This document shows, one piece after another, positions 2,411 through 64,000 of a stretch of DNA of 64,000 bases. A model generated the notes under the pieces. That model worked only from the letters and a program-made list of their open reading frames with translations. It made no database searches and was not told where the DNA came from. This DNA is from Tubulanus polymorphus (Eukaryota > Animalia > Nemertea), in NCBI RefSeq assembly GCF_964204645.1, contig NC_134029.1, forward strand, positions 14,812,950 through 14,876,949, in the 5' to 3' direction. The stretch's first letter is position 1. Every line of letters starts with the position of its first letter. The position numbers and the translations under genes were made by a program.

Positions 2411-3800
2411 TTTAGGAAGATAAGATTCCGTTTCATTTTGGGGTTTACTTTTACTTAGTTGTGTTAGTTGTACGCTAAACATTGTTTAGTACTCTTTGAC
2501 TACCTGCCAAGATATGTGTTTATTATTGTATCTCCCGGTAATTATTATGTCTCCCCAGTGAAGGGGAGACATATTTCACTCATCCCCAGTTGAGGGGAGA
2601 CATTTTTCACTGTGTCGTTGTGTGCCATGAGATGTCCCCTGACACATCATTAGTGTGATACAGGCTGCAATTCTTGATGGATTTTTCTCAATCTTAGTGT
2701 GAGGATTGGGGCAGGTGAGATGTCCACCCCGATTAAAAATAAAGGATATCAGCCATCAAACATGGCCATAAGGGCAGCAATCTTGAATTTCTAGTTAGCA
2801 GAATACACTCTTGAATTATTTATAGTCTTTCATGAAATTTAGTGGGTTGGTTTGGAATTGTAAGATGTGTGGCCACATCGAAAATAAAGATAGTCGGTTA
2901 ACACAATACAGCCTTCAATTCTTTTTAGATCTTCATGAAACTCAGTTCGAGCATTGGGGGAGGTGAACTGCCTTTAAATATGGCTTCCAGCAGCCATCTC
3001 GAATTTCTAGATAGTTTGATACGGCCTATAATTCTCAATGGATTTTCATGAAATGCGCTGAGTAGGATTGGCCAGGTAAGATGTGCGCCCCTTATGATAT
3101 CAACCAAATATGGCTGCCACAGTGGCTATCTTGAATTTTCTTGTTAGGCATTTTTAGGCCAGCCGTAGGCTGAGCCTATTACTATTTAAATGGAGCGAAT
3201 TTAAATGACATGGTTTCCAGAGCAAAGTCTCTTTGTCTGTGCAACTGAGCATATATTCATACAAATCATTCATTACAGCATTATCCATTCTCCAAACTCT
3301 ACGTAGCTGAATTTAAAAAGAGGGCCTTGTTAAGATTTATATGAGCTTTTTTTGCGAATATCTGATCGCAAAAATATTGGTTTTGAAAAGCAAATCAGAA
3401 AACAAAGACTCCTCTATGATTGGCTTAGCCGCAGAAATCAGCAGGGGTTAATGTGTACCTGTTTTGTATTTCCGTCGAGTACTGTACCCTTTCCTATGGT
3501 GTTTGCCAATATTTTCTAAATTTGGATTGATCGCCAATGGTTTTTCTATACGACCCGGCCCTGCGGTATTGCATTTAGCCACCGGCGAAATCCGCCATCT
3601 TTTTTCTTGGCCTTCTCGCAGTAGAACGCGTTGGATTTTTTTTGCTGTAAAAATCTGGGAATAAGGATTTTAGGGAGTTTTCACTCTCATAACGGTGAGT
3701 CCGTTCGGTTTGGGGGTTATCCCTGGTTTCTATTTTTCCGTAAGAATTTTATTTACAAATATAATTTGATTGAATCGATTTGATTTGTAACAGGATAATT

Positions 3801-5996
3801 ATGCCACCCCCTCCTAAGGGTCAACATCGTGGCGGGGAGGGATGCGGGCATTTGTTTGGCGCCTGGGACAACCACGATTCGTGTGCGTCGTGCAGGCGCA
3901 AATCCGGTCAAATATGTGCAAGGAGCAATCCTTGCAAGATTTGCGAGGTGTGGTCCGAGGACCTTTGGCTTCGGGCCGATAAGGCTCTTAAACTAAGAGA
4001 TCGTCGTCGAGTTAGCAGGGATTCGTCGGTTTCGTGCCAACCGACGTTTCTAATCCGGTTTCTTATCGTAAAGCGGAGCGGTCGCCGGTCGTTCAGGTAC
4101 GATCGGCTTCCCAACTCCGTTCACCGGGGAGGAACGCTGGTTCACCGGCACCGGTCTCCGGTCATTCACCGGTCTCTGGTCGTTTGGCCGGTTCAGACTA
4201 CATGTTCGGAACCGAGCGCGCGCCGCGGTAGTAATGAACGGCCCGCACCGGTATGGTTGGTACCGGTCCGGTTCGGGCACCAGTCCGGTCCAGACGTCGT
4301 CCGGTTCAAAACATCCGGTACGTTCATCGTCTGATTCTGATCGTCGCTCTGGGGATAGAGCTCGCTCTCCCACTAGATTTAGACGCCGTGAGCGTAATAA
4401 AGGAGCAAGATCTCCTTCTCACAGATCAAGAGGTTTGATCGCGAGAGGGACTACGATGGTTATTGTCGGAAGTTTCGCCGTCGGTCTTCTCATCGTTCGT
4501 CGACGTCGGTTAGCGATGAAGGCGATTCTTCTGGTAGGTCTCGATCCCATTCGAGGGACCGTCACCGAAGTCGGCATGATCGTCGGGATACTGGAAAATA
4601 CCTGACTCAGGAGGATTTCCATGTATTTGAAGAGAAAATTTTAAACTTGTTATCTTCGTCGCAACAAGTCACTGCAACCTCTACAACAGGTAAGCCTATT
4701 CCTGATTGTCCGGTTAGAAGTTCGCCAGCCCACTCAGTTCTTCGGAATTCTGACTCTGAATTCCTGGATGCTGCGGTAGGGTCTGATTTCAATGAGGATC
4801 CGGTCCCAGAAGCGGCAATTCCTTCTGGGGTCGTTCCTGTCGCGAGCAATTGTGGGTTGCCCCAGACGATGGGGGCTTCCCTGGCTCGCAATGTATCTCC
4901 GTCCCGTTCAGTTTTATCCAAACCAGCGGGGGAAATGCCATTTAGAGCGATGATAAGTGAGTTCTTTGTCAAGCACGGGGCAACTCGCACTAAGCCCACA
5001 GCAGCTCCTCTGGTCGGTGAGTCAATGGAAGCTTATCGCCCTCCGGACTACGATCTTAACGTTTTACGGGAATCCTCAGCGGTTTCGAGAGAATGGGCTC
5101 GATTGGATACGCAATTATGGGGTGAATGTCGGCCTGGAACATTTTCATTTCCCCCTCCAGAATGGGGTATGAAATCTGGGAAATATTTTAGTTCAACCGA
5201 TCCACCTATAGGCGCATTTCGCTCGGCGTATTACGCAACTCCAGGTGCTGTGGATCACAGTCATAACTGCCTGGATGCTGATTATACTTTGATCAGCCCG
5301 GATACTGTTACAGCACAGTCGGGTATTCGTTTGCCTAAGTCCGGTTTGGTCGCCATGACGTCAATCCTGGACAATCTTTCCAGGGTTGGTTCGTTTCAAG
5401 ATATGGCACTTAAGGTGTTGACGGGTGAGCTTCGCGAAACTCACGCCGCCGTTCATGCGGGCTCCGACCCAGAGTCAGTTGCCCTAAAACTGGAGGGAAT
5501 GGACCGGATTATCCAATCTTTGGCTCGGTCTGTTTCGCATGTAATTCCGTTGTCGGTTCGGGGTCAGGCTAATCTTGTGTTAGCCTCCCGTCAGTCAGTG
5601 ATGGACTCCAGTTCCAAAGCTCGTCTACCGGATATGGTGTCCAATGCTTTGCTGAGAGCCCCATTGGGGACGTCTTCACGTCTCTTCTCCGGTTGGTGCG
5701 CTCCGGTTTCCGCAGAGCTGAGGAAGATTCAGGAGGTTCAGGCCAAGTCCAACCCCCGAACTCCGTGGAAAAAGCGTTCTGGTCCGACGCCGGCGGCGCA
5801 AGGTTCGGCACGGACGCAAACAGGACCATCTCAAACTTCAGCGCTTTCTCAGGCGGCTTCGGATGCCGGTTGGAGAACTAGCGCGCAACTTCAACAATCG
5901 TGTCCAGCCTCATCCGGTTGTAACAGTTCCGGTTCGTATCGAGGCAAGGGGAAGGCTCCAAAAAGGGGCTCTTCCTTTTGGAAAAACTCGAAATGA
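3801..5996 (+). pseudogene. DIRS gag-like ORF1 (frameshifted)
   Basis: N-terminal Cys/His cluster CGH..DNHDSCASC..C...PC..C..W, an S/R-rich linker broken by frameshifts, then the 449-aa open segment 4647-5996. Confidence 0.75.
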
Positions 5997-6017
5997 ATTC
6001 TTGGGACCAGTGGGAGG

Positions 6018-7272
6018 TTGTCTGCAGCAGGCAGTGGCAGGTCCGACCTTTTTGGAGACGGTTGGCCCTCCCGGGTCGTCTCTCGTGGCTACCGTCTCCG
6101 TTTCCTAAGGCGACCGCGCCTGATGAGGTCACCTCCCGACATGCGGCCAAAACCAGGTCAGGAGGCCTTAATCTCTCCGGCTCTCAAGGAATTGGCCGAG
6201 AAGGGAGCGATAGAACCAGTTTGCAACGAAACTTTTCCCGGCTTGTTTTCTCGAATATTCATGGTACCAAAGGCCACAGGGGGTCAACGGACAGTGATAG
6301 ATCTGTCATCCCTCAATCGGCACCTAGACATTCCAAGGTTCCGGATGACCAAGCCCAAGGACGTGATTCAAGGGCTCCGTCCGGGTCAATGGGCGGCTTC
6401 ATTGGACCTGAAAGATGCTTACTTTCAGGTTCCAATTCACCCAAAATCTCGGCGATTTCTCATGATAAAGTGGAAAGGCCGCCAGTTCCAATTCAGGTCT
6501 CTTCCATTTGGCCTCAGTACGGCCCCGTGGGTATTCACCAAGTTGGTCAAGTCAGTTCAGAAGGTACTTCAGTCAAGGGGTGTTCGACTGTTCGCTTACC
6601 TCGACGACTGGTAAATAGTCGCGAATTCGGCTCAGGAATTGTCGGGAGGCAATGACCTCAGTCTTGGACTTAGTCCATCAGCTAGGGTTCCGCGTAAACA
6701 GGGAAAAATCTCAGTTGACGCCGGCCCAACAGTTCACTTATCTCGGCATGGACTTCGATCTCCGAATCGGCAAAGTCTTTCCGTCTATGGCTCGAGTAGC
6801 CAAACTTCAAGAAGCTGTAGCGGGAGTGTCCACAACCCCGAGAACAGCTCGTTACTGGTCACGGCTTCTAGGCTCCATCAGCTCCATGGGTCTGGTAGTG
6901 CACTTAGGCCGCCTCAGAAGCAGGCGCTTGCAACAATATTGGTAGGTCTTCTGGTCTCAGTCGAAGGGCAACTGGGAGACCTTGATTCCCGTACCTCCAA
7001 CCGATCTAAGTCCGGATCTTCAGTGGTGGGCGGCAACTACGAATCTTCGGCTCGGGGTGTCACTAGCCCCGTTAGAGGCTCCAGTTCGTGTATTCACGGA
7101 TGCCAGTCACCAAGGATGGGGGGCACATCAAGAGAACCGAGTCAAAGCCGGGAGATGGTCTCGCTACGAGGCCACCAACCACATAAATTTCCTAGAAATG
7201 CTGGCCGTGTGGAAGGCCCTGAAGTTCTTTCACAGGAGAGTGGAGGGCCACCACGTTTGGTTAGCCACAGAC
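6018..7272 (+). pseudogene. DIRS reverse transcriptase/RNase H (disrupted)
   Basis: SLDLKDAYFQVPIHP, LPFGLSTAPWVFTK, YLDDW followed by TAA (6612-6614), a +1 frameshift near 6645 and TAG at 6943-6945. RNase H motifs VFTDASHQGWGA and HINFLEMLAV; truncated after WLATD. Confidence 0.93.
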
Positions 7273-7273
7273 A

Positions 7274-7675
7274 TGTCCTGTGCGGGCGTTGTGTTTCTAT
7301 TTAGATCGCTCTGCTTCACGGAGGGGTTCACGGGAGCGGTTATTTATTCCGCTGCTGGATCACCTAAAGGGTGATATTTCGCGGGACACAGTGGCCCGAT
7401 GGGTCTCTTCACTGATCAAGGGCATTTTATTGAAGGAGAATCTTTCCTCGGAGGGAGTGGTTTCTCATCAAGTGAGGTCTATGGCTACTTCCTGCGCAGC
7501 CTTTTCGGGTGCTCCGTTGGAGGAATTCTGTCGGGCCGCCTTTTGGAATTCTCCATCGACATTCACATCATTTTATTTACAGGATGTTTCAGGCCAGTTA
7601 GGCTCATTAGCTTCACTTGGTCCTGTTGTCATGGCTCAAGGTGTCCGTTCTTTCCGATCGCACCCTTTAGTGTAG
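7274..7675 (+). pseudogene. C-terminal half of DIRS tyrosine recombinase
   Basis: CPVRALCFYLDRS...SHQVRSMATS...AAFWNSPSTFTSFYLQDV (H-x-x-R, W and catalytic Y). The N-terminal half is missing. Confidence 0.9.
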
Positions 7676-9468
7676 AATATTTATGTTGCATTATCAGGAT
7701 CACAGGGGGTGTATCCTTGTACATAGTTTGGGCTCATATCTGCAAGTATTAATTTCGCAATATTCTGGGGGGGCCCTGAGCTTGACGGACTCACTGGGGC
7801 CAACAGGTCTTCCCTGTGCTACAGTGCTCCATTCCGTGCTTGGGTAAGTGCTCTCTTTTTCCGTCTTACCTTGCGTTTGAGCGGTGGTTTTTCTATCTAC
7901 CTTTCCCACCATCCTTGTGCTAGGCTAGTCTAGCAAAAACCATAGGAAAGGGTACAGTACTCGACGGAAATATTACAATTTTTGGAACTAAAATTTGTAT
8001 TTCTGAGTAGTACTAACCCTTTCCTATGGTGGGAATCCCGCCCACCTGCCCCGCATAGCTGTTTTTTTTTGGTCTGCTATGACGTAAAAAGATGGCGGAT
8101 TTCGCCGGTGTCTAAATGCAATACCGCAGGGCCGGGTCGTATAGAAAAACCATTGGGGATCAATCCAAATTTAGAAAATATTGGCAAAAACCATAGGAAA
8201 GGGTAAGTACTACTCGGAAATACAAATTTTAGTTCCAAAAATTGTAATTTCTAGATCTAAAATTGTATTTCAAGATCGATTTCTGTGAAAGCTTTTGTTG
8301 ATTTGGTTTTTGGGAGGAATATTTTTAATAGCACTACAGAAAATATCATTGACCGATGTGCAAAGTCCGGAAAAAATAGCTTTTTCTTAAATCGGATAGA
8401 TGACCTTAATATGCTAATTAGCCATATGCTCAAACTACAAATTCAATCAAATTTTATTCTGCATAGAAATATCAAATCCAATTCAATTTTGTTTTATTGA
8501 GCAAATTTCAGAAAATTCTATTCTATTCCGCATTAAAATCAATAAGACCAAGGGAAAAGATTTATCTGAGGTATTTATTCTTGCCAGATCCAGTCGCTGT
8601 CTGTGCTACTTTTGTATTCTACGATTGTATTGTGTAAATTATTAGGTATTGACTCTCAGCTGGGAGTGTATTTTGACAAATTTAAGAGCTATCAATTGGA
8701 TCTGTTTTCTGTATCTGCACGAAGTAGTTACGCGATCGCGTAATGACGTCTTGCGCGAGTTGTTACTTCGCGCAGAATAAACCTGCACGAGCTGTGATGA
8801 ACAGGTGCGTGATCGCGTATTGATGTACTGTACCGCGCGAGTTGTGATGAACAGATTTGACTTTATTCAATTAATTATGCAGCGAACTGTTAAAACATCA
8901 ATATTAATAAAAATAAGATTTCCACTATTTGAATTCGTCAAGAAGGGATATTTAGAAACGTTGTTATTTGTAAATTATCGCTAAAAAAAGCTAAAGATTT
9001 AATGGTTTTGATTTTATATGCCTAAAGACGATGATTGATTACATTGATGTAGTGTATCAAACTTGTAACTTGTAGTGTATCAAAATAGTGATACGGTACG
9101 TGAAAAGTAGCTTAATTACCTTTATCTATTTATTAATCCTAATGTCATGAAATAATCCTGGTCTTGTTATATGATTATATTAGTGTATTCCAACATGTGC
9201 CTAAGACGATGTCCTAACGTAAACTGACCCGTTCTCTAATATTATATTAATTCTATCGCGCGCGCGAACTTAAAGCCCGACGCACACGAGGCAATTTTAG
9301 TCGTAGTGCTGCGACCGATTTTTATCTCACCGAACGCCGCGCACCTCGTTCAAAAATCTAAAAATATAAACCATTTTTATTTGATAAAGCAAAATATCCA
9401 AAACGAAACTACATCTCCTAAACGTCTTAACAAATAAATGTATCTAGGGCACTTATACTAATATAACG

Positions 9469-10035
9469 TTACTTAATGTGCCAATCGTATGCTGACTGAC
9501 AAATTCCGCGGACGACTTCGGACCACCTACACCCTGCCTTGTTCAGTCTAAAATCCGATCGAGGGTTCTTGGATAGCAGGTCTGCAGGCCACCATGGCAC
9601 TCTTTTGGATTCATCACCCTAGCTCGGACAGTTTTTTCGATGCCTCATCATATTTGAATGAAATATCAGCGTGGCACAGAGCGATCTAACTTCATTACTA
9701 TTCAGATCACGGATCTCCATGTTTTCTTTTCATGGAAATAACTCACTCATTTTCGGCAAATCTCCGTTAGTTTCCTTTGATGCCGCCGTACCCGCTGGTG
9801 CCGAAAGCGCGTGCTCCACAAATTTCTGCCGAATGTCATTCGTTGCACCTTCTGTTACCTTTGTGGAAAATGTGAGGGATTCCAGTTTGTTTTTGTTGTG
9901 TTGGTTCTTTCCTTCCTCTTATCCGCAAAGAATGACCGCATATCATAATTTCTTCGAAAATTTCTCAGCATACTTCGTTGCCATATGCCACGCATGTCGT
10001 AAGTCTGCAGTCATTTTGTTTGAGTCCGTATCCAT
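9469..10035 (-). pseudogene. NRF1/erect wing/P3A2-like DNA-binding-domain gene, intronless, 4 in-frame stops
   Basis: 189 codons without frameshift: ...DLPKMSELFP*KENMEIRDLNSNEVRSLCATLI...PS*GDESKRVPWWPADLLSKNPRSDFR...WSEVVRGICQSAYDWH, versus NRF1 ELPPL...VDKMTQAQLRAFIPEML...PGWGKESCKPIWWPEDIPWANVRSDVR...WTQALRTIVKNCYKQH. Confidence 0.85.
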
Positions 10036-10151
10036 GTTGTTAATTGTTGGTCGTTGAGCGTTGGTCGTTTTCCGTTGTAAATGATGTTGTAAGTGATGTT
10101 AAGTGTTAAAAGAATCAAAGAATACCGTTTAATGTGGTGAGAAATTGCAGA

Positions 10152-10159
10152 TTTTTATA
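10152..10159 (-). promoter_or_regulatory. Candidate TATA box of the NRF1-like gene
   Basis: TATAAAAA on the minus strand, 117 bp upstream of the ATG at 10035. An AATAAA lies on the minus strand near 9376-9381, downstream of the stop. Confidence 0.4.
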
Positions 10160-10267
10160 CGGTTCTTCTATCATTGTCTTCAGAATTTCTAGACCAATTA
10201 TTTTACATAGGTCTTCTAGACACGATAATTATGAAGAAATTAGGGTTCCTGGTACAATTGGCAAACA

Positions 10268-10968
10268 TTGTGCTGGTGTTTTAAAATAAATGGGCGAATG
10301 GGATTGCTAATTATGCACATGCCACAATTTCTGCTTCGTTTTACATTTTGGCTACTTATTGTAAGAAAATTACTCCCATTTGAATCTAATTCTAAAGAAT
10401 TAGGTACCGATTATAATGATTTCATTGTTCGTTTCCTCAGGAGCCAACACTGGACGGGTACATCAGAGTTTAAAAATGCATTTACATAGTAGTTTATGCT
10501 AGACTTAAAATTAGTTAACAGCAGAAATTCATAACAAATGTGTATATTCATAGTAATCAAGTTATAGCCAGACAGGCATATTCCATCCGACAGCGCCAGG
10601 TGCCTTCAGAAAAATGCAAATGATAAATTTCAAATATTTTCATATATATATAATGCAGGAAGGAGATCGAATTTATGGCAAAAAATTAGGGCTTCCATCT
10701 CATGCCGGGTAATTAAGTAAATTCCAAATAGAAATGCTGGCCAACCCATTTTCTTAGCTATCGGGTCTAAAGATTACTTGTTTATAGAATTATTTGAATA
10801 CTTTATAAATAGGTGCCCGGCTATGTGTAAAATTAACTTAGGAAAAATGAGAAAATATCATTTTTGTCTTATATCCCGCAATAAATTGAATCCAACAACT
10901 AAAAAATGCTAACTACAGACCACGAAAAGAGATATTTTTCTCTTCAATCTGTGGGTGTTCAACGTTAA
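10268..10968 (+). pseudogene. Highly decayed Crypton/DUF3504-like tyrosine recombinase relic
   Basis: Collinear motif remnants across frameshifts: FWLLIVRK..FESNS..IVRFLR..SEFK; VYARLK; L*-QTGIFHPTAPGAF; SHAG*L; IELFEYFINRCP; FCL; YFSLQSVGVQR*. The catalytic R and the HxxR/Y region are not visible. Confidence 0.45.
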
Positions 10969-12378
10969 GGTTTAACGTGTTATTTTAATATTTTTTATAT
11001 ATAATGTTCGCGTATAATGTTTATTCAAAGTGTTTACATTTGTATGATTTCATAAGTAATGAACAGAATTGTTATATAATACTCGTCTTTTCTCTTGATC
11101 AGTATACGTGTATTCAATGTTCTCTGCTAAACTGTCGATTTTCTCGTCAGTTTGTCATTGTCGGAAAATCCTTTGAAAAAAGTATCACTTGAAATCCCGC
11201 CCGAAAAATGATCTCGCTAAATAGAGGTAAAATAAAATCCATGCGTCCGCAACAGAAGTCTTTGATAGTACGAAGTACCGGGTCTAATAACCTCGCGCAA
11301 CTGATCATGAAAATATCCTAGCTGCGCGAAGTAACTACTCGCGCAACTGATCATTATGCGATCGCGTAACTGGTTCGCGCAGATCGTCAGTTTCTGACCT
11401 TCATATACCTGAATTTAACCCACAGAATGCATCATCATTTGCCATTTCATGAAAAGCTGACAGGCTGGCCATAGTGCCCCTTGGGGCTCTTGGTTTTTTA
11501 ATTTATTTACTTGACTGTTGATTAACAGAGAGCTGTATATACTTGAGATGAAACTGGAATTCTTAAATGACTGAATTCTTGGCGATCAATCTGAAATCCA
11601 AGTGATTCATGAAAGAGCTCAACGACTTTGGGATCTTAGATTCTTAACTGAAAAATGTCATTTTTTAATTTTTTTGTGGATTCCTTTGAATTCTGCCTAA
11701 AGAAATTTTTTTCATATTTTCCCTTTACCCCACCAAAGATTTTCTCCTAAAATCCCGAAATCCAAGTAATTAAGAAAAAATTGCCTTAGCATGATACATT
11801 CTTGATTGATTTACATGAAACTTGATGTTAGGATTGAGGAAGGTAGGCTGTCCATCATTATCGAAAATGGAGGTCATCCGCCATAACATATGGCTATCCA
11901 TGAAACTCGATGTGAAAGTAAAGACCATGTGTGTTAGACTTGAACCAATAATTCTTACAATCCCAATGAACAATTAAGTAAACCCTCCTGTCAGGAAGTA
12001 TACAATATGTGTGTTAACCTGTCTTCAATTTCTTGCCCTCACACCGTTTGCTTACCCGGGGAAGACATGACGTAGCCTCATTCTAGTTTTGGACTGTATC
12101 AATGTAGTAATTTTTACAGTCATTTTGGCTTGTATCAATGTTCTAATTTTAGGTCGTGGAGTGTACCAAATTTGCTGGGGGACCATTCATTTCTTATGTA
12201 CGCTTTATGGGAGGGGAGGGGTAAGTGCAATGCGTACTGTAATGCCTTAAGTATATGAAGAAATGGTAATTTTGCGTACAGGGGGTACATTTTTTTCAAA
12301 CTCGGTACACAAGCAGGGCATTACTTAAGACAGAACCCTATTCAATTTAGTTGATGTGAATGCAACTGTTGATCAATC

Positions 12379-12995
12379 TTATGCCCCGACTTAACTTTAG
12401 TTGAGAGGGGCATATAGATTTACCCCTGTCTGAATTGTGCGGCGTCCGCCGCCGCAGGTGTCGTTAACAGCCTAGAGACCGCAATTGTTGACCGATTGTT
12501 TTCAAACTTTGTACACAAGTAGGATATCACTTGGGCCAGAACTATCTCTATCTAAAATTGGGTCAATTTGATCCAAATTATGGCTACCGGGGGGCCGACC
12601 TGAAAAACAACGTTAACAGCCTAGAGACCACATTGTTGACCGATTCAAACCATGGCCATCAGGGAAAAACAGCCTAGAGGCTGCAACTGTTGATCAATAT
12701 TTTATACACTTTGTACACATGTTGTCTAATGTCATACTTATAGAAATTATTGTGGCCATGATATTTCTTATGCATTTACCACAAACCCTGTAACTTCACG
12801 TGGCGGTGAAGTTCAGGCTGGGGGCATTCGAGGCTTTGCCTCATTCCAGTTTAAATTCCGTACACATGTTGTCTAATATTATTCTGGTAGAATTATTTAT
12901 GGCCACAATATTTCTAATGCATTTTCAAAAAAACTCAGTTACTTCACATATAGATTTCAGGCTTGGGGGATTCGAGGCTTTGTCTCATTCTAGTT
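12379..12995 (+). mobile_element. HINE-like element with duplicated 3' end
   Basis: 5' hairpin TATGCCCC...GGGGCATA, internal repeats (GTTAACAGCCTAGAGACC), and 3' GGGGCATTC-GAGGCTTTGCCTC hairpin at ~12820-12850 and again at ~12965-12995. Confidence 0.6.
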
Positions 12996-13016
12996 GATAA
13001 TTTCTTTATTTTTCAG

Positions 13017-26530: not shown

Positions 26531-27740
26531 CAATTCATTACAAGACAATAATAATTTGATGCAGATAATGCATACTGCAACGGCTCAGCTTCTGGAATGC
26601 AAATGAGTCAGTCCGCGAATCATCAGGTAGTATCTGCTGTCGTACCGCACCATTAAGTTTTTTAAACCCTTTACATGGGGGCCAGTAGCAGAATCTTTCT
26701 TTCTCACTCTCTGCATCAGACCATCGGGACCATCAAATTCGACAATTAAGGAAGCCATGATCTGAAAATGTTTTTAAACAAATCCACGAATTAATGTGTC
26801 TTACGTGTGTTAACCCATTAGCACTCAGGAATTGCACTCAGGAATTGCACTATGTAGTGTCAATAACTCCTCAGAAATGCACTATGTAGTGTCAATAACT
26901 CCTCAGAAAATTTGAGGTAAAATCTAAGTTCATCACGATACCAAATAGCTCATTTGCTGTTTATTTCCATGTACTGCAAGTTAGTTTCATTTTGCAGTAA
27001 ATAGTCAAGCCTTTCATATGATATATGATTTGATGAGGTGGGCCTCCAAAATCATGTCCTTTTGGCCCCCAAAATTCATCCAAACTTACTTGGATTTGAA
27101 AAGAGCGCTCAGATGTGTCATGTTCAAACTCAAAATACTCGAGAAATTGAAATAGGAGGATGTTGATTCCTGTTCGGCATTTCGAGGACTTAGGTGTGTA
27201 ATTTATCCTAAGCTATTGGGCTCGAATCCCACTATAACCATTTTTGTGCAGCATACGAAAAAAAAGTACAAAACAAAATTAATTTTGATGAATTATTTGA
27301 TGCCTGCAAAAAAATGTAGAATTTTTGGGATAGGCTTATGTGGAATTGCAAATTTGAAATCGAAGTTTTAAGAAATTTGGGGAATTATGAGATTTGGCAA
27401 TTGGGTAGGTGATACAGAGTCTTCAACTGCAGTAGTGGTTTAATTTTTTTTTGGAGAATTGTCAATAATTGATAACTTGTCACTTCATTCACTTTTGCCT
27501 AAAAGCTGGTCTGCAACTTCATTTTGCCTCCATGGTTGAGGAAAGCTCTTCTGATGTCTGCTTCATCATGACTTTGGCTGTCACTCGATATCCTCTCAAG
27601 TCTGGATTTAAGTTGACATTGTCATTTAGAATAACTATGTTATTCTGTATGAATTTCGCATGTGTCTTGTATGTTGTATTTTTAGGGTTTTGTGTTACTT
27701 CACAGAAAACCCTATTGAGATTCGCGTGTTTCTTATTATT

Positions 27741-29155
27741 AGGCCAGTCGTAGGCTGAGCCTATTACTATACAAATGGAGCGAATTTAAATGACATGGTT
27801 TCCACACAAAAGGCTCTTTTGCTTGCCAAGTGAGGGCATATTCGAACAAATCACGTATTTAAGCGTAATCCATTCTCGGAATCGTAGCGAGCAGAATTTT
27901 GAAATAGGGTCTCATAAAAATGTTTTCTGCATTTTTCACGAAAGTTAAATCGGGAAAATTTCAATTTTTATCAGCCAATCAGGAAGTTGTGTCTTCCCTG
28001 TGATTGGTTTATCTGAAAATATCAGCAGCTGTTCACGTGAATTATCGCGATTTCATTACTGGCGCTTTTGCGCATGACGTCATGTATCAACACGCGACAA
28101 TACTTCCGCGTTCGCTACGTGTTCGCTGATTGGCCCATTTACTGGGAAATTCCACAGAAGCCTAATGTGGTTTGTTACAAGCGCTGTGATTGGCCCGACC
28201 CGATTCCGGCATGGCTTTAGCTTAGTGGGTTCGAATCCCTTGACGGGTGAAGATGATGGATCCTATCAATATCTATTGAAACAAATAAGTTTCCCGGTTG
28301 GGCAGCCGCGGATATCTACCGGAAGTGTTCCGGTTCGATATTTCGAGGTTTCTTTGAATTTTGGAGTGATATTGAAATCCGGTAAATACCAGCGGTAGAT
28401 TGTGAAAACCCATTGCATGATATTTGTATTACTTAATCAACGAAAAGCGTCGGGGCCGCGCCAGGAGTTTTCGTGATTCAAGTAGCGCAATAGCCTACTT
28501 CTTCGTGTTCGTCCACCTCAATTTTCACTCCGCCGATCTCTGACACGGCTCTGTCCCCGTCGGCGCTGTGATTGCACTTTCGTACCACCAAAATTTTTTA
28601 TTTCTATATCAGGGAGGTCTGGAGAATAAAAAAGTCAAAATTTGGATATCACATAGGCCTGATTTCATCGAATAAGTCGACCATGGTCGTTACGTTTCCG
28701 TGCTTATTACCACCTAAAACCGTCTGAACAATTTTGTCACAACCAACATTTCAACAGAGGGTATTTTTGACCAGGCAATTATGACGCACTTGGCAGCCAT
28801 CTTGGGGTCATCAGTACTCATTCGTAGGTGGAAAAAAAGTTTTTCCACATCATAATTGATACTTAAGCATATTTTGCTACTATAATCAATTGGAAAGTTG
28901 TAGCTCATGACATGTTCTATGATCGAGGTGAGTTTCAAGCTCATTGGTTTTTTTATGGCCACCAGGGGGCGTTGAACAATACAATAACTTAGTATTTCTA
29001 TATTACATTCGTTCCTGCTGTCTGTGTTAACACACGATTTTACTATGTAAATGATATTGAGCAGGGAGTGTATATTGATAAATATAACCCACAGATTACA
29101 TCATTTATAAAAAGCAAATCTGACAGGCTGGCCATTGTGCCCCTTGGGGCTCTTG
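27741..29155 (+). mobile_element. HINE family B, apparently uninterrupted copy
   Basis: Both termini present (AGGCCAGTCGTAGGCTGAGCCT ... CAGGCTGGCCATTGTGCCCCTTGGGGCTCTTG), inserted in a TTATT run. Confidence 0.75.
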
Positions 29156-30039
29156 TTATTACTTTGTCACACTATTTTCACTAAAAGAACATAGGCTTTT
29201 TTACCTTGCCACAGTTGCCAATACAATCTGTATGATATCCTTCAGCTCACTTCGATCTACAAATACTCTGTGCGTATTATCATGAATCAACGTTACAAAA
29301 GCACTTTCGGGCCGTAAACATCAAAAATTGGGCCCTATTCAATGAGACCACATGTTTTTCTGAGTCGTCATCCCGAAATCCAACGTAGGTTGCTCGTCAC
29401 TTCGATTATCAATTCAAGTGTAAATAAACAAATTAATTGCCGCAAGACGTTACATTCAGCCGCGGTCCTCAAACAGTAAATTTTGACAATTAGCCATTTT
29501 CTTCATCAGTACACTTAACCGACCAACAGTATATAATTTACTGCTCTAAATATTATAAGCTTTGTCAAGCTGGAAAGATCGATGAATCAACTTGTGTCTT
29601 TACATCCTCGTTCCGCGGAACCGCTGCGGGGTTCTCTTGCCATGAGAATCAAAGCAAGTACATATAAATTTATTACACAGCCATCTCAAAATGGTCACTT
29701 TTCAATAGTTGACTTTTAGGAACGATGTGTTTTGAGAGTAGCTGCTATGGTAGGAGTTACTATCACAAAGTCACTGTTTACAGACAGGTGGTTTTACAGT
29801 CACCTCTACTGCTAGTGTGCACTATCGAAACCAGATGTTTTAAAATGGTCACTTTTCTATAGTAGACTCTTCGAAACAGCCACTATATAAAACCAACCGA
29901 ATTGAAAGGAATACTATTTCAGAGTGACTGTTTTGAAATGAATACTACTGGAAAAGTAGCCGATATCGTTAATTGCTTATTGTTCTCAAGTGGCTACTAA
30001 GTAGAAGTAGACGTTTGGGCTCAAAAGTGCGATAGACAT

Positions 30040-32238
30040 GTTCTTGGATTCCGCCTTTCATATTATCTGTGCCATCATAACACTGTCCTCTACAGTCAAC
30101 GATCTCAAGATGAAGATTACCAACTGCCTCTTGGAGCAAGTCAGCCAATTGCTTACCAGTTGTACTGCTGCATCTGATGAAACCTATAAACGACTCTTAT
30201 ATTTCCATTTTAGAATCCACGTAGCACAAAATTAAAGCCATTTGTTCTAGGTTACCACAGTCCTGTGTTTCATCAGCAATGATTGAAAAGAAAAGAAACA
30301 CGTATCTCAGTGACAAGCTGGCTCAATCCATTAACGAATACACTCTATTATATCATATTGGATTGTTTTAGAACGATATGAGGCATTCTTTGGGACAACT
30401 TTGAAATGATTGGCAAGTACCTGGTCACCAGCTTCACAATGAAATTCTAACAGCTTTTTGAATCTTAAGATGCTTGGCATCTTCCCGATGACCTCATAGT
30501 GCTATGTATTGTTTTCCACAAAAAACTACAGTTTTCACAAGAGAAACAAGCACTAATCGATTTCTGGCAATGACATGTTGATTCCTCATTTACACTAAAG
30601 GTATGACCAAAGAAAACACATGATCGGCAAAACGCTCCAGATAGTTTTTGAGTGTATGCCAGCCAGGGGTACCGTATTTTCCGGTGTACAAGTCGACCTG
30701 GTGTATAAGTCGAGGTCAAATTTTCAGTTTAAAAAGTTGTGCTAGGGCTATAGTCGGTGTATAAGTCGAGTCGCTTCTTCATGTGTTTACATATGTCACA
30801 TTGAAAACAGTGCCGATGTCATCCTCATAGTAGTTGTGAGTCTTTACCACTGTTTGCATTATTAAATCATTGGGATCTGTTGTTTCTAATACTAAATTAC
30901 CGGATTAGTGCTCATTGTTTGTTTGTATCCACGTGTTGAATGTATAGTGTATACATTGAATGCCGTGCGCCTGTAGTCTAGTATTAGACTGTAGTCTAGT
31001 ATTAGACTGTAGTCTAGTATTAGACTGCTGTGTATTGATTATTGGCACGCTGCCACAGCATCGCGGCTTATATAAACACTGTACAATGAATATACGCGGT
31101 TTTCTTTCTTTTTTGATTTTTAACATTAGTTAATTTTGAAACATTTCCAAACTATAAGAAACTATTTTTATCAACATCCTAAATTCAAATTGGTATATGA
31201 GTGTAGCCTAACATAAATTTATATTCCATTTCATCATGGCGACCTTGAACTCTAAACATCGTCAGTTTAAAACGATATCGAAAGTGTAGCCGGTGTATAA
31301 GTCGACCTACGTTTTTTGGACATGATTTTTGGTCTCAAAAACTCGACTTATACACCTGAAAATACGGTAGTCCTGCAACCACGATTGCCTAAATGACCGC
31401 TTTCCAGTTTTTGGAAAGACATATGTAGCAGGAGGGATCCACAATCTGTTTAAACATACATATTTCTCAGCATCGCTCATCGTGGGCACGGTTTCAATAA
31501 AAAATCCTATGTCGTAAGTAGATATTGTCGGGCATTCTGCTGTGACCAGTTTCCCACTGGTTCCCTGCTCGGCTTCTAGTACAGTTGCCCTGCTATTTTC
31601 ATCATGCGTTTTCGAGCTCGGTTTCGGTATATTTTCTGACGTTTTTGCCATACATGTATCACTATGAACTACAAGTACGAAAAAAAAAGTTTGACTAAGG
31701 CCCTATCTTGTGATATAAACCGAAGGACAGGTTACCTTATGAGTGGACGTGATCGGGGTACACAACTTCTTTAGGTCTCAGATTGTGCCAGGACAAGCCT
31801 GCTTGATGACATTTTAATCCTTTAGGACGCTTTAAGCCTACGAAAGATCAATAACATATTTACCTGCGTCAAAACGCTTTGCCTTGGTGAAAAAACAATC
31901 GATAGTTGCCTGGCATATTGCGGCCACCATGCAGACGATGCGTGCCAACGGACAGACCCACGTGGCAGCTAGAGAGGGGTGTCCAGTAAGCAAAATTCGA
32001 AAACTGAACCAACAACCCATAGTACAAAAGAGGTATTTTTGTTGAACCATTATAGCGTATATAATTAGACAAAAACTACGACCTGAGAGGGTAATTGCGC
32101 ATCTGATATTTGTAGGATCAGTGTAAAGTAAACCTTTGTCTTTTCATATGCTTGTAGTGTTTTGGCAACTTTTTAATTTTTTTAAGCAGCTCTGACTGTC
32201 GCACTTGGGGCAATTGCGACAGCGTGGATCCGCACCTG
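30040..32238 (-). mobile_element. hAT transposon relic (ZnF-TTF + DUF4371, THAP12/ZMYM1-like transposase), 3'-truncated
   Basis: Minus-strand fragments YDIG...YVFPKTGKRSFRQSWLQDYPWLAYTQKLSGAFCRSCVFF, FKKLLEFHCEAGDQVLANHF..NASYRSKTIQ and FSIIADETQDCGNLEQMALIL. Terminus CAGGTGCGGATCC at 32238. Confidence 0.85.
30672..31367. mobile_element. Tc1/mariner-type MITE inserted in the hAT transposase
   Basis: TA|CCGTATTTTCCGGTGTACAAGTCG ... CGACTTATACACCTGAAAATACGG|TA. Confidence 0.9.
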
Positions 32239-36799: not shown

Positions 36800-38960
36800 G
36801 AAGGAACACACCAGTATACCGATTGATAGTTAAAGGGAGTGTGACAAAGAGGCAGAGCTGAAACACCAACAGATCCTACAGGAAGCGCAAGATGAAGCCG
36901 ACATTGCGGTCCTGGAAGCAAAGTTGATGAACGAAGCTGTCTAACTCGAACGAGAACGAAAACACGATTTTGATGATGAATTGGTTCCTGACCCACAAGA
37001 GTTTACACAGCCTCAACAGACACTTTCGGATCTGCCAGTGAATCAACAGCCTCAACGACTGCTACCTGATTATTTATATCGATTACCACAACCTCAGTCA
37101 CCAAGACGTCCGCCAAGATCTCCGTTTCAGGAGTCGCTACTGAAAATAAAGTTGCCGATCTTTAATGGTGATACTGCACGACTGAAATTGAAAAGATGAC
37201 ACACTTGCAGTCAGCAGTCACTGGTCCACCTCATCAGTTGATTTCCGGTATGATGTTTGATGGAAGCCAGTATGATGATGCTTCGAATGCATTAAGAGAT
37301 CGTTATGGAAAGGAAGACGACATCATACGTGCCTGCCTGAAAAAGGTATTCAGTCATCCGTCACCTAGATTACATGATGTCTCATCACTCGAAGGTTTCC
37401 AAGGAGTGGTGAATTCTACAGTCGTCACGCTGAAGAGCCTGAAGATCTTCGCAGCTCTTAGAATCTGCATCGAGTTATACTGAAGCTGCCCTTAGAGATC
37501 AGACTTGAATGGGGAAAACAAGCCATAGATATCGAATCCAAGAACGAACAACTGACTTTACTTCACTTGAACGAATGGTTAGTGTTATAACTCAGAGTGT
37601 CATTAAACTACTGCAAAGCAACAAAGTCAGTAGATGATCGTCAATCCAGTGATAGCAAGCAACATGACAAGCCAAGTACATCAAAACCGGGATCTGTCAT
37701 CTCTACTAATGTCAAAGCTGATGATGAGTGTATCTGCTGTAAAAGTAAACATTCCCTTGCAGAGTGTGACAATACCAATTAACGGTCCAAGTTCGCCGAA
37801 AACTGGAATGCTTGTTCAACTCGATGTCGTCTGTAGATGGATTGAAGATTCCACTCAGTCTAACTCCGATTGAAACCCAGATTGAATTTGTGCCGCATAG
37901 AAGATAAAGACATATCTGTTCCTGATCATGCTGATGTTCAAGTCCTGTTAGGTGCTAATGTCATTGAAGCGTTTATTCAACATGAAAGTAGAATTGGTTA
38001 ACCTAATCAGCCGTAGCCGTTCGAACAGATTTTGGTTATTTTTTACCAGGAGAGCTGGATATTTCTCCTCATTGGAAGGTATGAATCCACATGTCTACTT
38101 TTCTGGAGATGCCACAGATGAGAATCAACAACTGTTTTCATTAGATAAAGATTGGTGGCAAACTGAGTCGTTTGGTATCAAGAACCTGATATTTGAAAAT
38201 CAGTCTACCGAGCAGTTCAGATGCTAGATGCATATACTCGATTGGTCAATTGTCACTACGAGACTGGTTTGCTCTAGAAGAATGATGATATTCAACTGCC
38301 CTGCAACCATCCCATTTGCTATGAAGCGTCTGAAGAATACGGAACATACCTTTAAGAGGGATCCTGACAAGGCTACCCCCTCCCCCAAGACATTCGACGA
38401 TTACCTTAAGAAAGGATATTCTCGAAAACTGAGTGAGACTGAAGCTAATCAACCGAGTCCGAAGAAATGGTACCTTCCACACCCCGCCATTTTTTATCCT
38501 TACACGAAGAAGATAAGAGTGGTTTTTGATGCTGCCGTCTGCTACTCAGGAGTATCACTCAACAACCAGCTGTTTCCGTCAAGAACAAGTTGCTGTGATG
38601 GCTGACATAGAAGCTATGTATCACAGTAAGTACGGATAGCAGAAATGGATCAATCAGCATTGCGTTATTTATGGAGGAATCTAGAAGACCGTCCACCAGA
38701 CGTTTACCAGATGCTAGTCAACATTTTCGGTGCGCGATGATCCGCATCTATCGCGAACAATGCCTTGAAGATGACTGGTTGCGATTTCTATATGGACGAC
38801 TTCCGACAAGTCAAGACAGTTCTTGAAGCCATAGAGATGTTGTCACAGGTCTTTTCTACAGTTGCCATTGGCGGTTTTCGGCTTACAAAATATTTCAGCA
38901 ATAGCCGTGAAGTCCTTGCTGCAATGCCTCTGTCTGATGTTGCCTTTGATGTCCAGAAGT
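36800..38960 (+). mobile_element. BEL/Pao LTR retrotransposon relic (gag + RT), no LTRs recognised
   Basis: LKIKLPIFNGD, DUF1759-like YDDASNALRDRYG, zinc knuckle CICCKSKHSLAEC; RT WYLPH..KKIRVVFDAA..GVSLNNQL, ADIEAMY, DQSALRYLWR, FYMDDF, GGFRLTKYFSNSREVL. Many frameshifts and deletions; boundaries approximate. Confidence 0.9.
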
Positions 38961-49629: not shown

Positions 49630-50640
49630 TGGTTACTGGGAGTCACTGAGCACACAAAGTCCCTCTGCCCTTATTGCAGCTCGAGGTCGGAGTCGTCCCC
49701 TGGCCGGTTGCCCCTCGTCTACCAATTCTCCGTCGGATTCATCTTGTTCTGAGGCAGTTTGCTCAGCGATAGTCAGTGTCTCAGCACGAGCAGGGGTTTC
49801 GGCTTGGTTAATCCTTCCATTCCGAGGGTCCGATTCCACCGGAATTAGCCGATCTCTTTCCTCCTCCGAGCTCGAAGGACAAGAACTATGTTTTTGTGCG
49901 ACTGGGTCATGCTTCATGGTGCCATGCCTAGTGGAGGGAGGTTTGTTCAGGGGGACCTGAGGATTTTCACCATCATCCGACCTTATTATGGCCGGTTTCA
50001 TGCCGTTGAAGTGGACAACTTTGGTCTTGGTCTCTCCTAACTGAGTCTCCACCCGATTATTTACCTCAGTTAGGTGCAGTGTGACCACAAACGGGCCATA
50101 CCACTTCCTATGGAATTTCTGGGCCTCCACAGGCTTGACATAGTGACTGTATAGCCAGATTATATAGTCAGACTGTAGCCATTAAAGGCAGATTCAATTA
50201 GGCCCGCGACACGCCGCACATTCCATTGTGAACTGACTTGGCCATGGACTACTCACCACCATATCAATTGGAAGACTTATTTCTTATGTCCAAACATGAA
50301 AAAGGATGGGGTCTTCTGCGTTGATGACTGGACACTCGATGGGAATGCTATTAAGCATCCACGAGTGGTCATCACAGTCTTTCCCATTCTCATCAACCGT
50401 CAGTCAGCATCGCTTTGATTGATTTTTTGAAGTTTTCAACTTTTCCGTTCCTATGAGGGTGGAAATTGCGTTGGATACAGCATCCGAAATTGAGGATGGG
50501 TCCTCTATCATCAACGACGCCCTGGCTGTGTCCGGGAGATTTACCCCTGCCAGGAACGGTCCCTAGCCAGTTCGTCCTGCACTTCCCATGTGGTAGGGTA
50601 TGTGCATAAGGCCAGTTCTTGTAATTCATCTGCGTAGTGT
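49630..50640 (-). mobile_element. Ty3/Gypsy integrase relic
   Basis: FHPHRNGKVENFKKSIKAML, SVQSSTQKTPSFFMFG..SLPIDMV, and the GPY/F module KFHRKWYGPFVV...VVHFNGMKP. Confidence 0.85.
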
Positions 50641-62575: not shown

Positions 62576-64000
62576 TAAGGTTTAACGAAAGGTTTTTCCC
62601 TCGAACAATCGTTTATTCGATTAGAGTTGTTTCAATTTGAACAAAATTTTCTCAGGACAAAAAGTTTTTCATTTCAACAATAATATAGCTTTATTCGAAC
62701 ACATTTTCTTGTCAGAGCGAAGAAAAGTTTTCGTTCGCACAAAAAGCGTATTGTTCGATCAAACAGAATTGTTTTCATTTGAACAAAATTTCAGAGCATT
62801 AAGTATTTATTTGTTCGAGCAGGTACATTGTTTCATCGAAGCATTTTTCGTTCCGAAAAGCAAAATTTTGGTGAAACTAAATAGCCTTTTCATTATAATA
62901 ATGAGTAATCTTTATTCAAACAAAATAAACTTCTCATTCGAACATAAATAATAATATGAATCTGGGTTTACTTTGTATCCAATATCCATATCATGCCTTT
63001 TAGGTTGAAGCCCATCATCCATGTTTCCGGCCATGTACGGCACACAGCTTGTTTAGGTCGTTTTTGAGCCGATTAATAGACAAATGGAGCAAATGACATG
63101 GTTTGCAGATGAATGGCTGCAACTGATTATATTCATGCAAATCATGCATCTATGGGTTCATTCTCCAATTCCGACAAAATTTTGAAAAAGGTCCTCATTA
63201 GAATATATAGAATGTTTTTTGCGATAATCTGAACACATCAGTATTGGTTTTCAAACCCCGATCAAAAAGCAATCTCCTTTTCGATTGGCTTAGGCACACC
63301 AAGCAGCAGGTGTTCATGTGGACGCATGGTATTGTCTACTCAAGTCCCAGTGGGCTATTGTGTTCACTTTTTATCTGTTGCCCGTCTGTTTGTCCATTCC
63401 TCTGTCGATAGATGGAAACCAGTTATTTTTTAAAGTTTTGAAGACGTTTCAATGGATTGTCTTGATTTTTCGTTTAGAGCTATATCTACACTAGATACAT
63501 CTTCTGCCTAAAAACTGGCCTGATCCGAATCAAGATGGCCGACTGGCAGCCATTATTGTTTGCCAAACAGACAGTGGTTTCTATTTGTCTACACTAGAGC
63601 AAACACCGCTATCCTCAGATAGTGTTAAAATCAATACTCCACCAGAGTAAAGGCATTTCCTATCTGTAACAACCTTGTGGTACCAACACGCGCAGTAGTG
63701 ATATATCGTATGTTATATACATTGAATTTCTCTTGGACCGCACATTTAAAAAAAGTTGAAGTTAATACAATTCAAGACTCAGCGAATTTCTTCTGTTCGT
63801 CAACAACTTGTTGGCAATCAAACTGTTGTGTGCTTTCAAAAATTATCGAGAATTTTATTTAATCATATATTTTTTATTCAGCCACCTATCTTCACTTTAT
63901 AAGCCTAGCTGTGAATTGTGCAGTTACAAATTGATATACACTACTGAATCCAAAAAGGGCCTACACGTAATCAATTGAATAACAGGCTATAGGATAAGTC

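Follow-up and report, generated by a model that had tools for sequence, protein, structure and literature searches.

The stretch of DNA analyzed here, referred to below as the window, comprises 64,000 nucleotides of the nemertean Tubulanus polymorphus (assembly GCF_964204645.1, contig NC_134029.1, positions 14,812,950 to 14,876,949 of the forward strand). All positions are counted from its first letter. Its minus strand contains a broken, intronless reading frame for a protein of the NRF1 type, and this frame resides in an insertion of 2726 bp that is built like a copy of a cut-and-paste DNA transposon. NRF1/EWG, which regulates housekeeping and mitochondrial genes, is regarded as deeply conserved and present in a single copy. 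An earlier note, made from the letters of the window, had proposed the frame to be a hidden NRF1/erect-wing-like gene of a mobile lineage.

Architecture of the NRF1-like reading frame

The features of the frame and its immediate surroundings are as follows.

9472 to 10035, minus strand: NRF1-like reading frame of 188 codons with four in-frame stops; terminal TAA at 9469-9471
9943-9945, minus strand: stop X31, TGA (from translation)
9919-9921, minus strand: stop X39, TAA (from translation)
9730-9732, minus strand: stop X102, TGA (from translation)
9619-9621, minus strand: stop X139, TAG, in the Trp column of PGWG (human W224); TGG in a sister allele or copy
9472 to 9729, minus strand: best-conserved part, residues 103-188, the NRF1-type DNA-binding domain (from alignments to human NRF1 and to the protein P0002 described below)
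9662 to 10057, plus strand: antisense open frame of 131 codons, a shadow of the former; no family match in a Pfam scan
10154 to 10159, minus strand: candidate TATAAA, 124 nt upstream of the ATG (word frequency 0.5 per kb on the minus strand of the window)
9376 to 9381, minus strand: candidate AATAAA, 88 nt downstream of the stop (word frequency 1.25 per kb on the same strand)

Translation gives the minus-strand frame that the earlier note had described, with 188 residues, no frameshift, and the stops TGA, TAA, TGA, and TAG in the order claimed. For the profile and protein searches with the frame, these stops were set to X. The HMMER comparison proposed in the note yields a match of the read-through frame to the Pfam family PF10491 (Nrf1_DNA-bind) at E 4.5e-7 with 30.3 bits, which is above the curated cut-off of 23.5 bits. 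Herein, residues 55-186 align to profile positions 72-203 of 213, and the score still amounts to 26.6 bits if the whole 908-residue frame of the insertion is used as the query. Human NRF1 is found by HMMER among the PDB entries (8k4l_A at E 6.7e-5 and 8k3d_A at E 1.2e-4) and scores 25.9 bits against the frame. Approximately 20 of the 64 aligned columns are identical to it, or ~31% over the DNA-binding domain as counted by hand, which is far less than is usual between NRF1 orthologues.

In human NRF1, residues 54-172 form a MADS-like dimerisation domain and residues 201-284 a DNA-binding domain that, by itself, can bind the half-site TGCGC; this half-site is read by R206, N242, and R244, and W224 of the PGWG loop contacts the DNA backbone, as described in PMC10810270. 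In the HMMER alignment to 8k4l and 8k3d, R116, N156, and R158 of the frame occupy the columns of the three base-reading residues, and human S245, D246, K253, and W258 are likewise matched. The placement of the TAG at the Trp of PGWG is borne out by the alignment to human NRF1, as is the retention of the other motifs, which here read WWP, N-P-R-S-D-F-R, and W...VR.I....Y..H. The frame ends two residues past the last aligned column of the DNA-binding domain. The absence of an activation domain, also claimed before, holds for the frame, which contains no C-terminal domain of this kind, and a six-frame Pfam scan of the insertion gives nothing beyond PF10491. The model of the frame alone by AlphaFold2 has a mean pLDDT of 35.7 and is unusable.

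The frame contains 4 in-frame stops compared with a mean of 11.5 in base shuffles, and 4 or fewer occur in 0.86% of 5000 shuffles (P 0.009). The open frame on the opposite strand had been taken for an antisense shadow, and it indeed shows no match to any Pfam family. Because of the matches to PF10491 and to NRF1 in the PDB, the deficit of stops, and the lack of a family match for the antisense frame, the reading frame is, as judged from its sequence, the remnant of a real NRF1-type gene that is intronless and a pseudogene in this allele. As for the TATA box and the poly(A) signal, both words exist at the positions given above, but they are no more frequent than by chance, because such words are common in the AT-rich DNA of the window.

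A weaker match of the frame to Pfam DUF2129 was rejected as it reaches 17.8 bits, under the cut-off of 22 for this family. A variant genetic code was rejected as well, since TAG would need to mean Trp and a 531-codon frame of the neighboring retroelement is open under the standard code. We know of no code in which TAG has been reassigned to Trp.

The closest relative and the lineage of small NRF1-like proteins

When 1.84 billion representative proteins were searched exhaustively with HMMER at a threshold of E 0.001, only two, P0002 and P0003, were returned, and no canonical NRF1. P0002 is an intact protein of 211 aa that is collinear with residues 14-186 of the frame (E 1e-12, 64.5 bits); by BLASTP, 56 of 181 positions are identical (E 2e-19). 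The C-terminal 86 residues of the frame are the closest to it, with 44% identity over 79 aa at E 1.6e-19. P0002 itself has matches to PF10491 (E 1.3e-14, profile positions 34-207) and to NRF1 (8k3d, E 3.3e-11), and its C-terminal end lies ~25 residues past the DNA-binding domain. Its match to the profile therefore also spans the dimerisation part of PF10491, so that the description of the lineage as "DBD-only," that is, reduced to the DNA-binding domain, is not supported.

The N-terminal 73 residues of P0002 were modeled by AlphaFold2 from a two-row alignment as helix-strand-strand-helix with a pLDDT of 64-78, in a whole model with a mean pLDDT of 52. In the wide search with VIA-align, the top row for this model is the dimerisation domain of NRF1 (8k4l_B, residues 103-172; Z 4.8, rmsd 3.7, 70 aligned residues), a weak match with unrelated rows within 1 Z. 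The top row of Foldseek against the PDB is 8k4l_B as well, at a nonsignificant E of 0.013.

Since no canonical NRF1 reached the threshold and the nearest relative is the 211-aa P0002, the frame is assigned, on the strength of these alignments, to a separate lineage of small NRF1-like proteins that would comprise a dimeriser and a DNA-binding domain and lack an activation domain. This agrees with the earlier statement that the frame is not a recent retrocopy of the host NRF1.

The second protein, P0003 (1835 aa, NACHT-LRR), was rejected as a relative. Eight of its stretches match residues 93-124 of the frame at E 1.3e-5 as a look-alike of leucine-rich repeats, a case that illustrates how single-sequence HMMER matches to repeat proteins can be spurious.

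Further searches were made with other tools. Word-index protein searches with the read-through frame at near, longer, and shorter lengths found nothing. Metagenome contigs searched by protein and by a 21-nt end pattern gave no match, and viral contigs likewise gave none, either with the protein or with the two-sequence alignment as the query. In the ESM Atlas, an open 49-aa piece of the frame retrieved rows with scores of up to 0.85, which serve as leads only; among them are an 83-aa cluster of PF10491 (score 0.80; 52 members, one of them given as Mollusca) and several clusters from Basidiomycota that lack a family assignment.

Anatomy of the insertion

The frame is located within an insertion whose parts and flanks are listed below.

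8686 to 11411: insertion of 2726 bp, a decayed or non-autonomous DNA-transposon copy (from read joints, empty paralogous sites, and the six-frame Pfam scan)
8679 to 8685: left target-site duplication AATTTAA (from the sequence and the empty sites)
11412 to 11418: right target-site duplication AATTTAA (from the sequence and the empty sites)
8713 to 8775: left subterminal inverted-repeat arm, 63 nt, 86% complementary to the right arm
11322 to 11384: right subterminal inverted-repeat arm, 63 nt, 86% complementary to the left arm
8253 to 8678: left flank, a high-copy host repeat; read depth ~1670-2330, loose ends at 8253
11419 to 11492: right flank, the continuation of the same host repeat; read depth ~740, loose ends at 11492

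Its limits were read from whole-genome reads labeled as the same species and mapped on window positions 3001-13000, with the depth taken as the sum of both strand columns. A joint from 8678 to 11412, which skips 2733 bp and shares 7 letters, is found in 495 reads of this run (X5) and in 4 contigs of another run (X1). The window also contains two empty paralogous sites (~64-136 and 29048-29120), each with AATTTAA occurring once. The target duplication is perfect at 7 bp and extends to 8 bp only with one mismatch. The inverted arms begin 27 nt inside each end of the insertion, neither end carries a run of A or T, and the insertion includes 1.4 kb upstream of the ATG of the frame. Because of the target duplication, the 63-nt inverted arms, and the absence of A or T runs at the ends, its anatomy is that of a transposon and unlike that of a retrocopy. 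Hence, the insertion is what remains of a cut-and-paste DNA transposon, in a decayed copy that lacks a transposase. A duplication of 7 bp fits P elements. It also fits the sizes given for hAT7- and Dada-like elements in PMC12730594 and PMC3706591.

Read depth and the sister sequence

The read depth changes abruptly along the mapped part of the window.

3001-8678: read depth ~1000-2300
8679-11350: read depth 32-79 in all 8 bins
11351-11684: read depth ~740
11685-12018: read depth 55, the sole low-depth flanking bin

Within the frame, the reads reveal a sister sequence. A T>C difference at 9620 turns the TAG into TGG (Trp) in 17 of 30 X5 reads, in all of the X1 contig depth, and in 4 of the 7.75 X2 depth. 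The other coding differences among those listed in the reads, at 9616 and 9694, are both synonymous third-position changes. Reads with the alternative coding letters carry at least 5 further differences, and the sister sequence is for this reason a diverged allele or a second copy. The gene is dead in the window copy; in the sister sequence, one of the four stops is replaced by Trp.

Differences between the reads and the window were also seen at 8719, 10108, 10126, 10520, 11040, and 11840, where the reads with the alternative letter have 1-6 further differences. Taken together, the read differences suggest that the species is very polymorphic or that a second, diverged copy exists.

Sequence motifs in the ends of the insertion

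The two ends share motifs that resemble sites of an NRF1-type protein in containing TGCGC.

8751, plus strand: TTGCGCGAGT in the left arm (from a motif search)
11337, minus strand: further occurrence of TTGCGCGAGT; also 11291, minus strand, with one mismatch, and 8833, plus strand, with two mismatches
8752 (plus) and 8770 (minus): TGCGC sites in the left arm
11323 (plus), 11341 (minus), and 11377 (minus): TGCGC sites in the right arm; one more just inside the arm at 11295 (minus)
8728 to 8743: perfect 16-bp palindrome TTACGCGATCGCGTAA in the left arm
11354 to 11369: the palindrome TTACGCGATCGCGTAA with one mismatch in the right arm

The palindrome has two matches in the window at up to three mismatches, one in each arm, compared with 0.09 expected. 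The ends contain 6 of the 7 TGCGC sites of the element, and the 64-kb window has 54 such sites overall. The right end holds 4 compared with 0.79 in dinucleotide-preserving shuffles (P 0.006). Both ends are rich in CpG, with an observed/expected ratio of 1.6-1.8 against 0.84 for the window.

From these motifs and from the residues shared with NRF1, the following mechanism can be proposed. A small NRF1-type protein, probably acting as a dimer, would have recognized the TGCGC-containing TTGCGCGAGT and the GCGATCGC palindrome, which are repeated in inverted orientation in both ends of the element. The bound protein would then have recruited the transposase of an autonomous partner element located outside the window. 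By analogy, its logic as a helper would parallel that of the Myb/SANT protein of PIF/Harbinger elements. That the gene product bound the ends of its element is conceivable from the motifs, albeit doubtful. Beside TTGCGCGAGT and TTACGCGATCGCGTAA, GCGCATGCGC is named as a probe for binding by an intact member of the family.

Weighing the origin of the gene

That the gene belonged to a transposon family is the explanation which is considered rather likely. Of the mobility that the earlier note had claimed, the structural half stands: the frame lies inside an insertion that is bounded by a target-site duplication and inverted repeats and has empty paralogous sites. A many-copy lineage did not emerge, as there is one copy in the window, a depth of 32-79, and no transposase.

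Several observations weigh against a transposon-borne gene. The frame occurs as a single copy within the 64-kb window, and since the reads cover the insertion to the same depth as the one flanking bin of low depth, the element is probably present at one or two copies; at such a low depth, this genome does not show a mobile family. When 8686-11411 is scanned against Pfam in six frames, PF10491 alone is matched, with no remnant of a transposase. A DNA transposase is likewise absent from 112 open frames of at least 70 aa elsewhere in the window, a set that leaves out 26 frames starting in 3400-8300; 6 open frames of the retroelement region within 3400-8300 were scanned separately. The copy is therefore either non-autonomous or the product of an internal deletion, and it cannot be assigned to a superfamily. 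Its outermost 27 nt are barely inverted repeats, with ~7 of 14 positions pairing by eye, and match only as [G/C]AG[C/G]TAT. Concerning the protein, the N-terminal 100 residues of the frame alone have no significant similarity to P0002 (shuffle P 0.03; no collinear BLAST match). Because these residues are marginal and only the C-terminal 86 are securely homologous, the term "DBD-only" is not supported for the frame itself. P0002 is known from one contig of 1184 bp and is not known to be transposon-borne. With respect to the motifs, the left end has 2 TGCGC sites compared with 1.1 expected (P 0.31), which is not significant given its CpG-rich composition, and the evidence from the ends is suggestive only, since the idea of the motifs came after the data were seen.

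A different history would be the capture of a host gene, in which a non-autonomous transposon took up an intronless small NRF1-like gene by transduplication, as in Pack-type elements, and this passenger then decayed with no role in transposition. Such a capture would agree with an insertion that has ends and a target duplication but no transposase, with a small gene that is complete as a unit and has a collinear, intact 211-aa counterpart from another source, not known as transposon-borne, and with the weak enrichment of the end motifs. It agrees less well with a frame that runs from start to stop with its own flanks, and so is not a fragment, and with TGCGC-type motifs in inverted orientation in both ends. 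Capture is a possible explanation, although not a probable one. Alternatively, the host gene may be alive in another allele or copy, and what the window shows would then be the null allele of a small regulator resembling NRF1, which might compete with NRF1 in a dominant-negative manner and was domesticated from the element or landed with it. The TGG at 9620 in the three sets of reads and contigs, the synonymous nature of the two other listed coding differences, and the existence of an intact relative are in line with a live gene; the listed coding differences, however, number only three and cover one of the four stops, and this scenario appears improbable.

The remaining two explanations can largely be set aside. 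A processed pseudogene of the canonical host NRF1 would be intronless and, with time, riddled with stops, as is the frame. Yet, human NRF1 scores 25.9 bits compared with 64.5 for P0002, no canonical NRF1 was found at E 0.001 in the 1.84 billion representatives, and ~20 of 64 columns are identical to human NRF1. Furthermore, the insertion has no poly(A) or poly(T) run, carries 63-nt inverted repeats, and includes the 1.4 kb upstream of the ATG, all of which make a retrocopy highly improbable. The four stops and the AT-rich surroundings might finally suggest an open-ish frame that arose by chance with no gene behind it; this is refuted by the PF10491 score above the curated cut-off, the independent match in the PDB, the BLASTP match to P0002, and the number of stops, and its probability is practically nil.

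In its fullest form, the transposon-borne reading describes a cut-and-paste lineage with its own NRF1-type end-binding factor, composed of a MADS-like dimeriser and a TGCGC reader and devoid of an activation domain. This factor would share a common origin with NRF1/EWG/P3A2, one being derived from the other. Taken as a whole, this extended proposal is speculative and, in our view, unlikely.

Comparison with known systems

With NRF1/EWG/P3A2, the frame shares the DNA-binding domain, the base-reading residues that correspond to R206, N242, and R244, and several backbone-contact residues; P0002 additionally covers the dimerisation part of the profile. In contrast to these proteins, the members found here have ~190-210 aa and no C-terminal activation domain, and the gene in the window is intronless, broken, and placed inside a transposon-like insertion.

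An NRF1-type domain in a paralogue outside the NRF1/EWG orthologue group is also present in Drosophila Ova (Ovaries absent, CG5694), which is not an NRF1 but contains an NRF-1-like domain and functions in heterochromatic as well as transposon silencing (PMC6335052). Ova differs in its length of 623 aa, in the position of the domain at 15-105, and in being a host gene, for which no location inside a transposon is reported in PMC6335052; it is set apart here on the basis of that description.

The proposed likeness to PIF/Harbinger elements (Nuwa) consists in a small DNA-binding helper encoded by the element and in repeated candidate sites in the subterminal regions, as outlined for these elements in PMC12730594. 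The helper of PIF/Harbinger, however, has a Myb/SANT fold instead of the NRF1-type fold, and the target duplication has 3 bp instead of 7 bp (PMC12730594). Moreover, no transposase is present here, and a two-gene arrangement would have to be assumed.

KDZ/Zisupton elements produce an 8-bp duplication according to PMC12730594, whereas the one found here is perfect at 7 bp. No KDZ transposase (PF18758) was detected in the insertion or among the 112 open frames scanned elsewhere in the window, a result that concerns this copy. Dada elements come closer with duplications of 6-7 bp, subterminal rather than true terminal inverted repeats, and insertion into multicopy sequences, as described in PMC3706591. 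They differ in targeting small-RNA genes and in having subterminal repeats of 7-9 nt (PMC3706591) compared with 63 nt here, and no Dada transposase is found here. Rfam and ARAGORN gave no match on the window and on the host repeat. Because the host repeat has no Rfam or tRNA match, a small-RNA target as for Dada is not supported.

A search of the literature yielded nothing that links the NRF1 domain to transposons; its scope did not extend to the supplement of PMC12062965, a screen of domains co-occurring with transposon domains.

Surrounding repeats and other relics

The host repeat that received the NRF1-bearing element also received a high-copy retroelement, and contig joints from 3365 to 8253 and from 3445 to 8297 mark this second nested insertion. 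With both insertions in place, the repeat occupies 3150-3450, 8253-8678, and 11412-11492 at a depth of up to ~2300, and it has paralogues in the window at 50-171, 27735-28039, 29060-29165, and 63065-63323. It has no Rfam, tRNA, or Pfam match.

3450-8253: retroelement of ~4.85 kb, depth ~1000-1450
4401-5993, 5997-6611, 6946-7371, and 7265-7672, plus strand: open reading frames of the retroelement
37172-37480, plus strand: transposon relic
49636-50181, minus strand: transposon relic
29972-30196, minus strand: transposon relic

The retroelement encodes a reverse transcriptase (PF00078, E 7.5e-12) and an RNase H (PF17917). Its C-terminal frame is, by its motifs, presumably tyrosine-recombinase-like, which would make the retroelement DIRS-like. 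The matches of the three relics, in the order listed, are to DUF1759 (E 8.2e-11), to a C-terminal piece of an integrase (PF22938, under the cut-off), and, weakly, to DUF4371. At 12462-12630, reads and contigs step back by 149 (from 12610 to 12462; 153 X5 reads), which looks like a tandem duplication of a 149-bp unit in other copies or individuals. Across the 64-kb window, no ordinary host gene was recognized.

Significance

With a single decayed element that is low in copy number and lacks a transposase, the case amounts to a lead rather than a demonstration. To our knowledge, the origin of the unusual DNA-binding domain of NRF1 has not been explained. Several other DNA-binding domains, such as THAP, BED, and Myb/SANT, are common to transposons and host factors. 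If the transposon-borne reading is true, the NRF1 fold would join this group, and there would be a testable route for the spread or recruitment of the NRF1-type domain. Natural competitors for GCGC-type promoter sites would be predicted, and an NRF1-type protein that binds the ends of its element would represent an undescribed kind of transposon helper.

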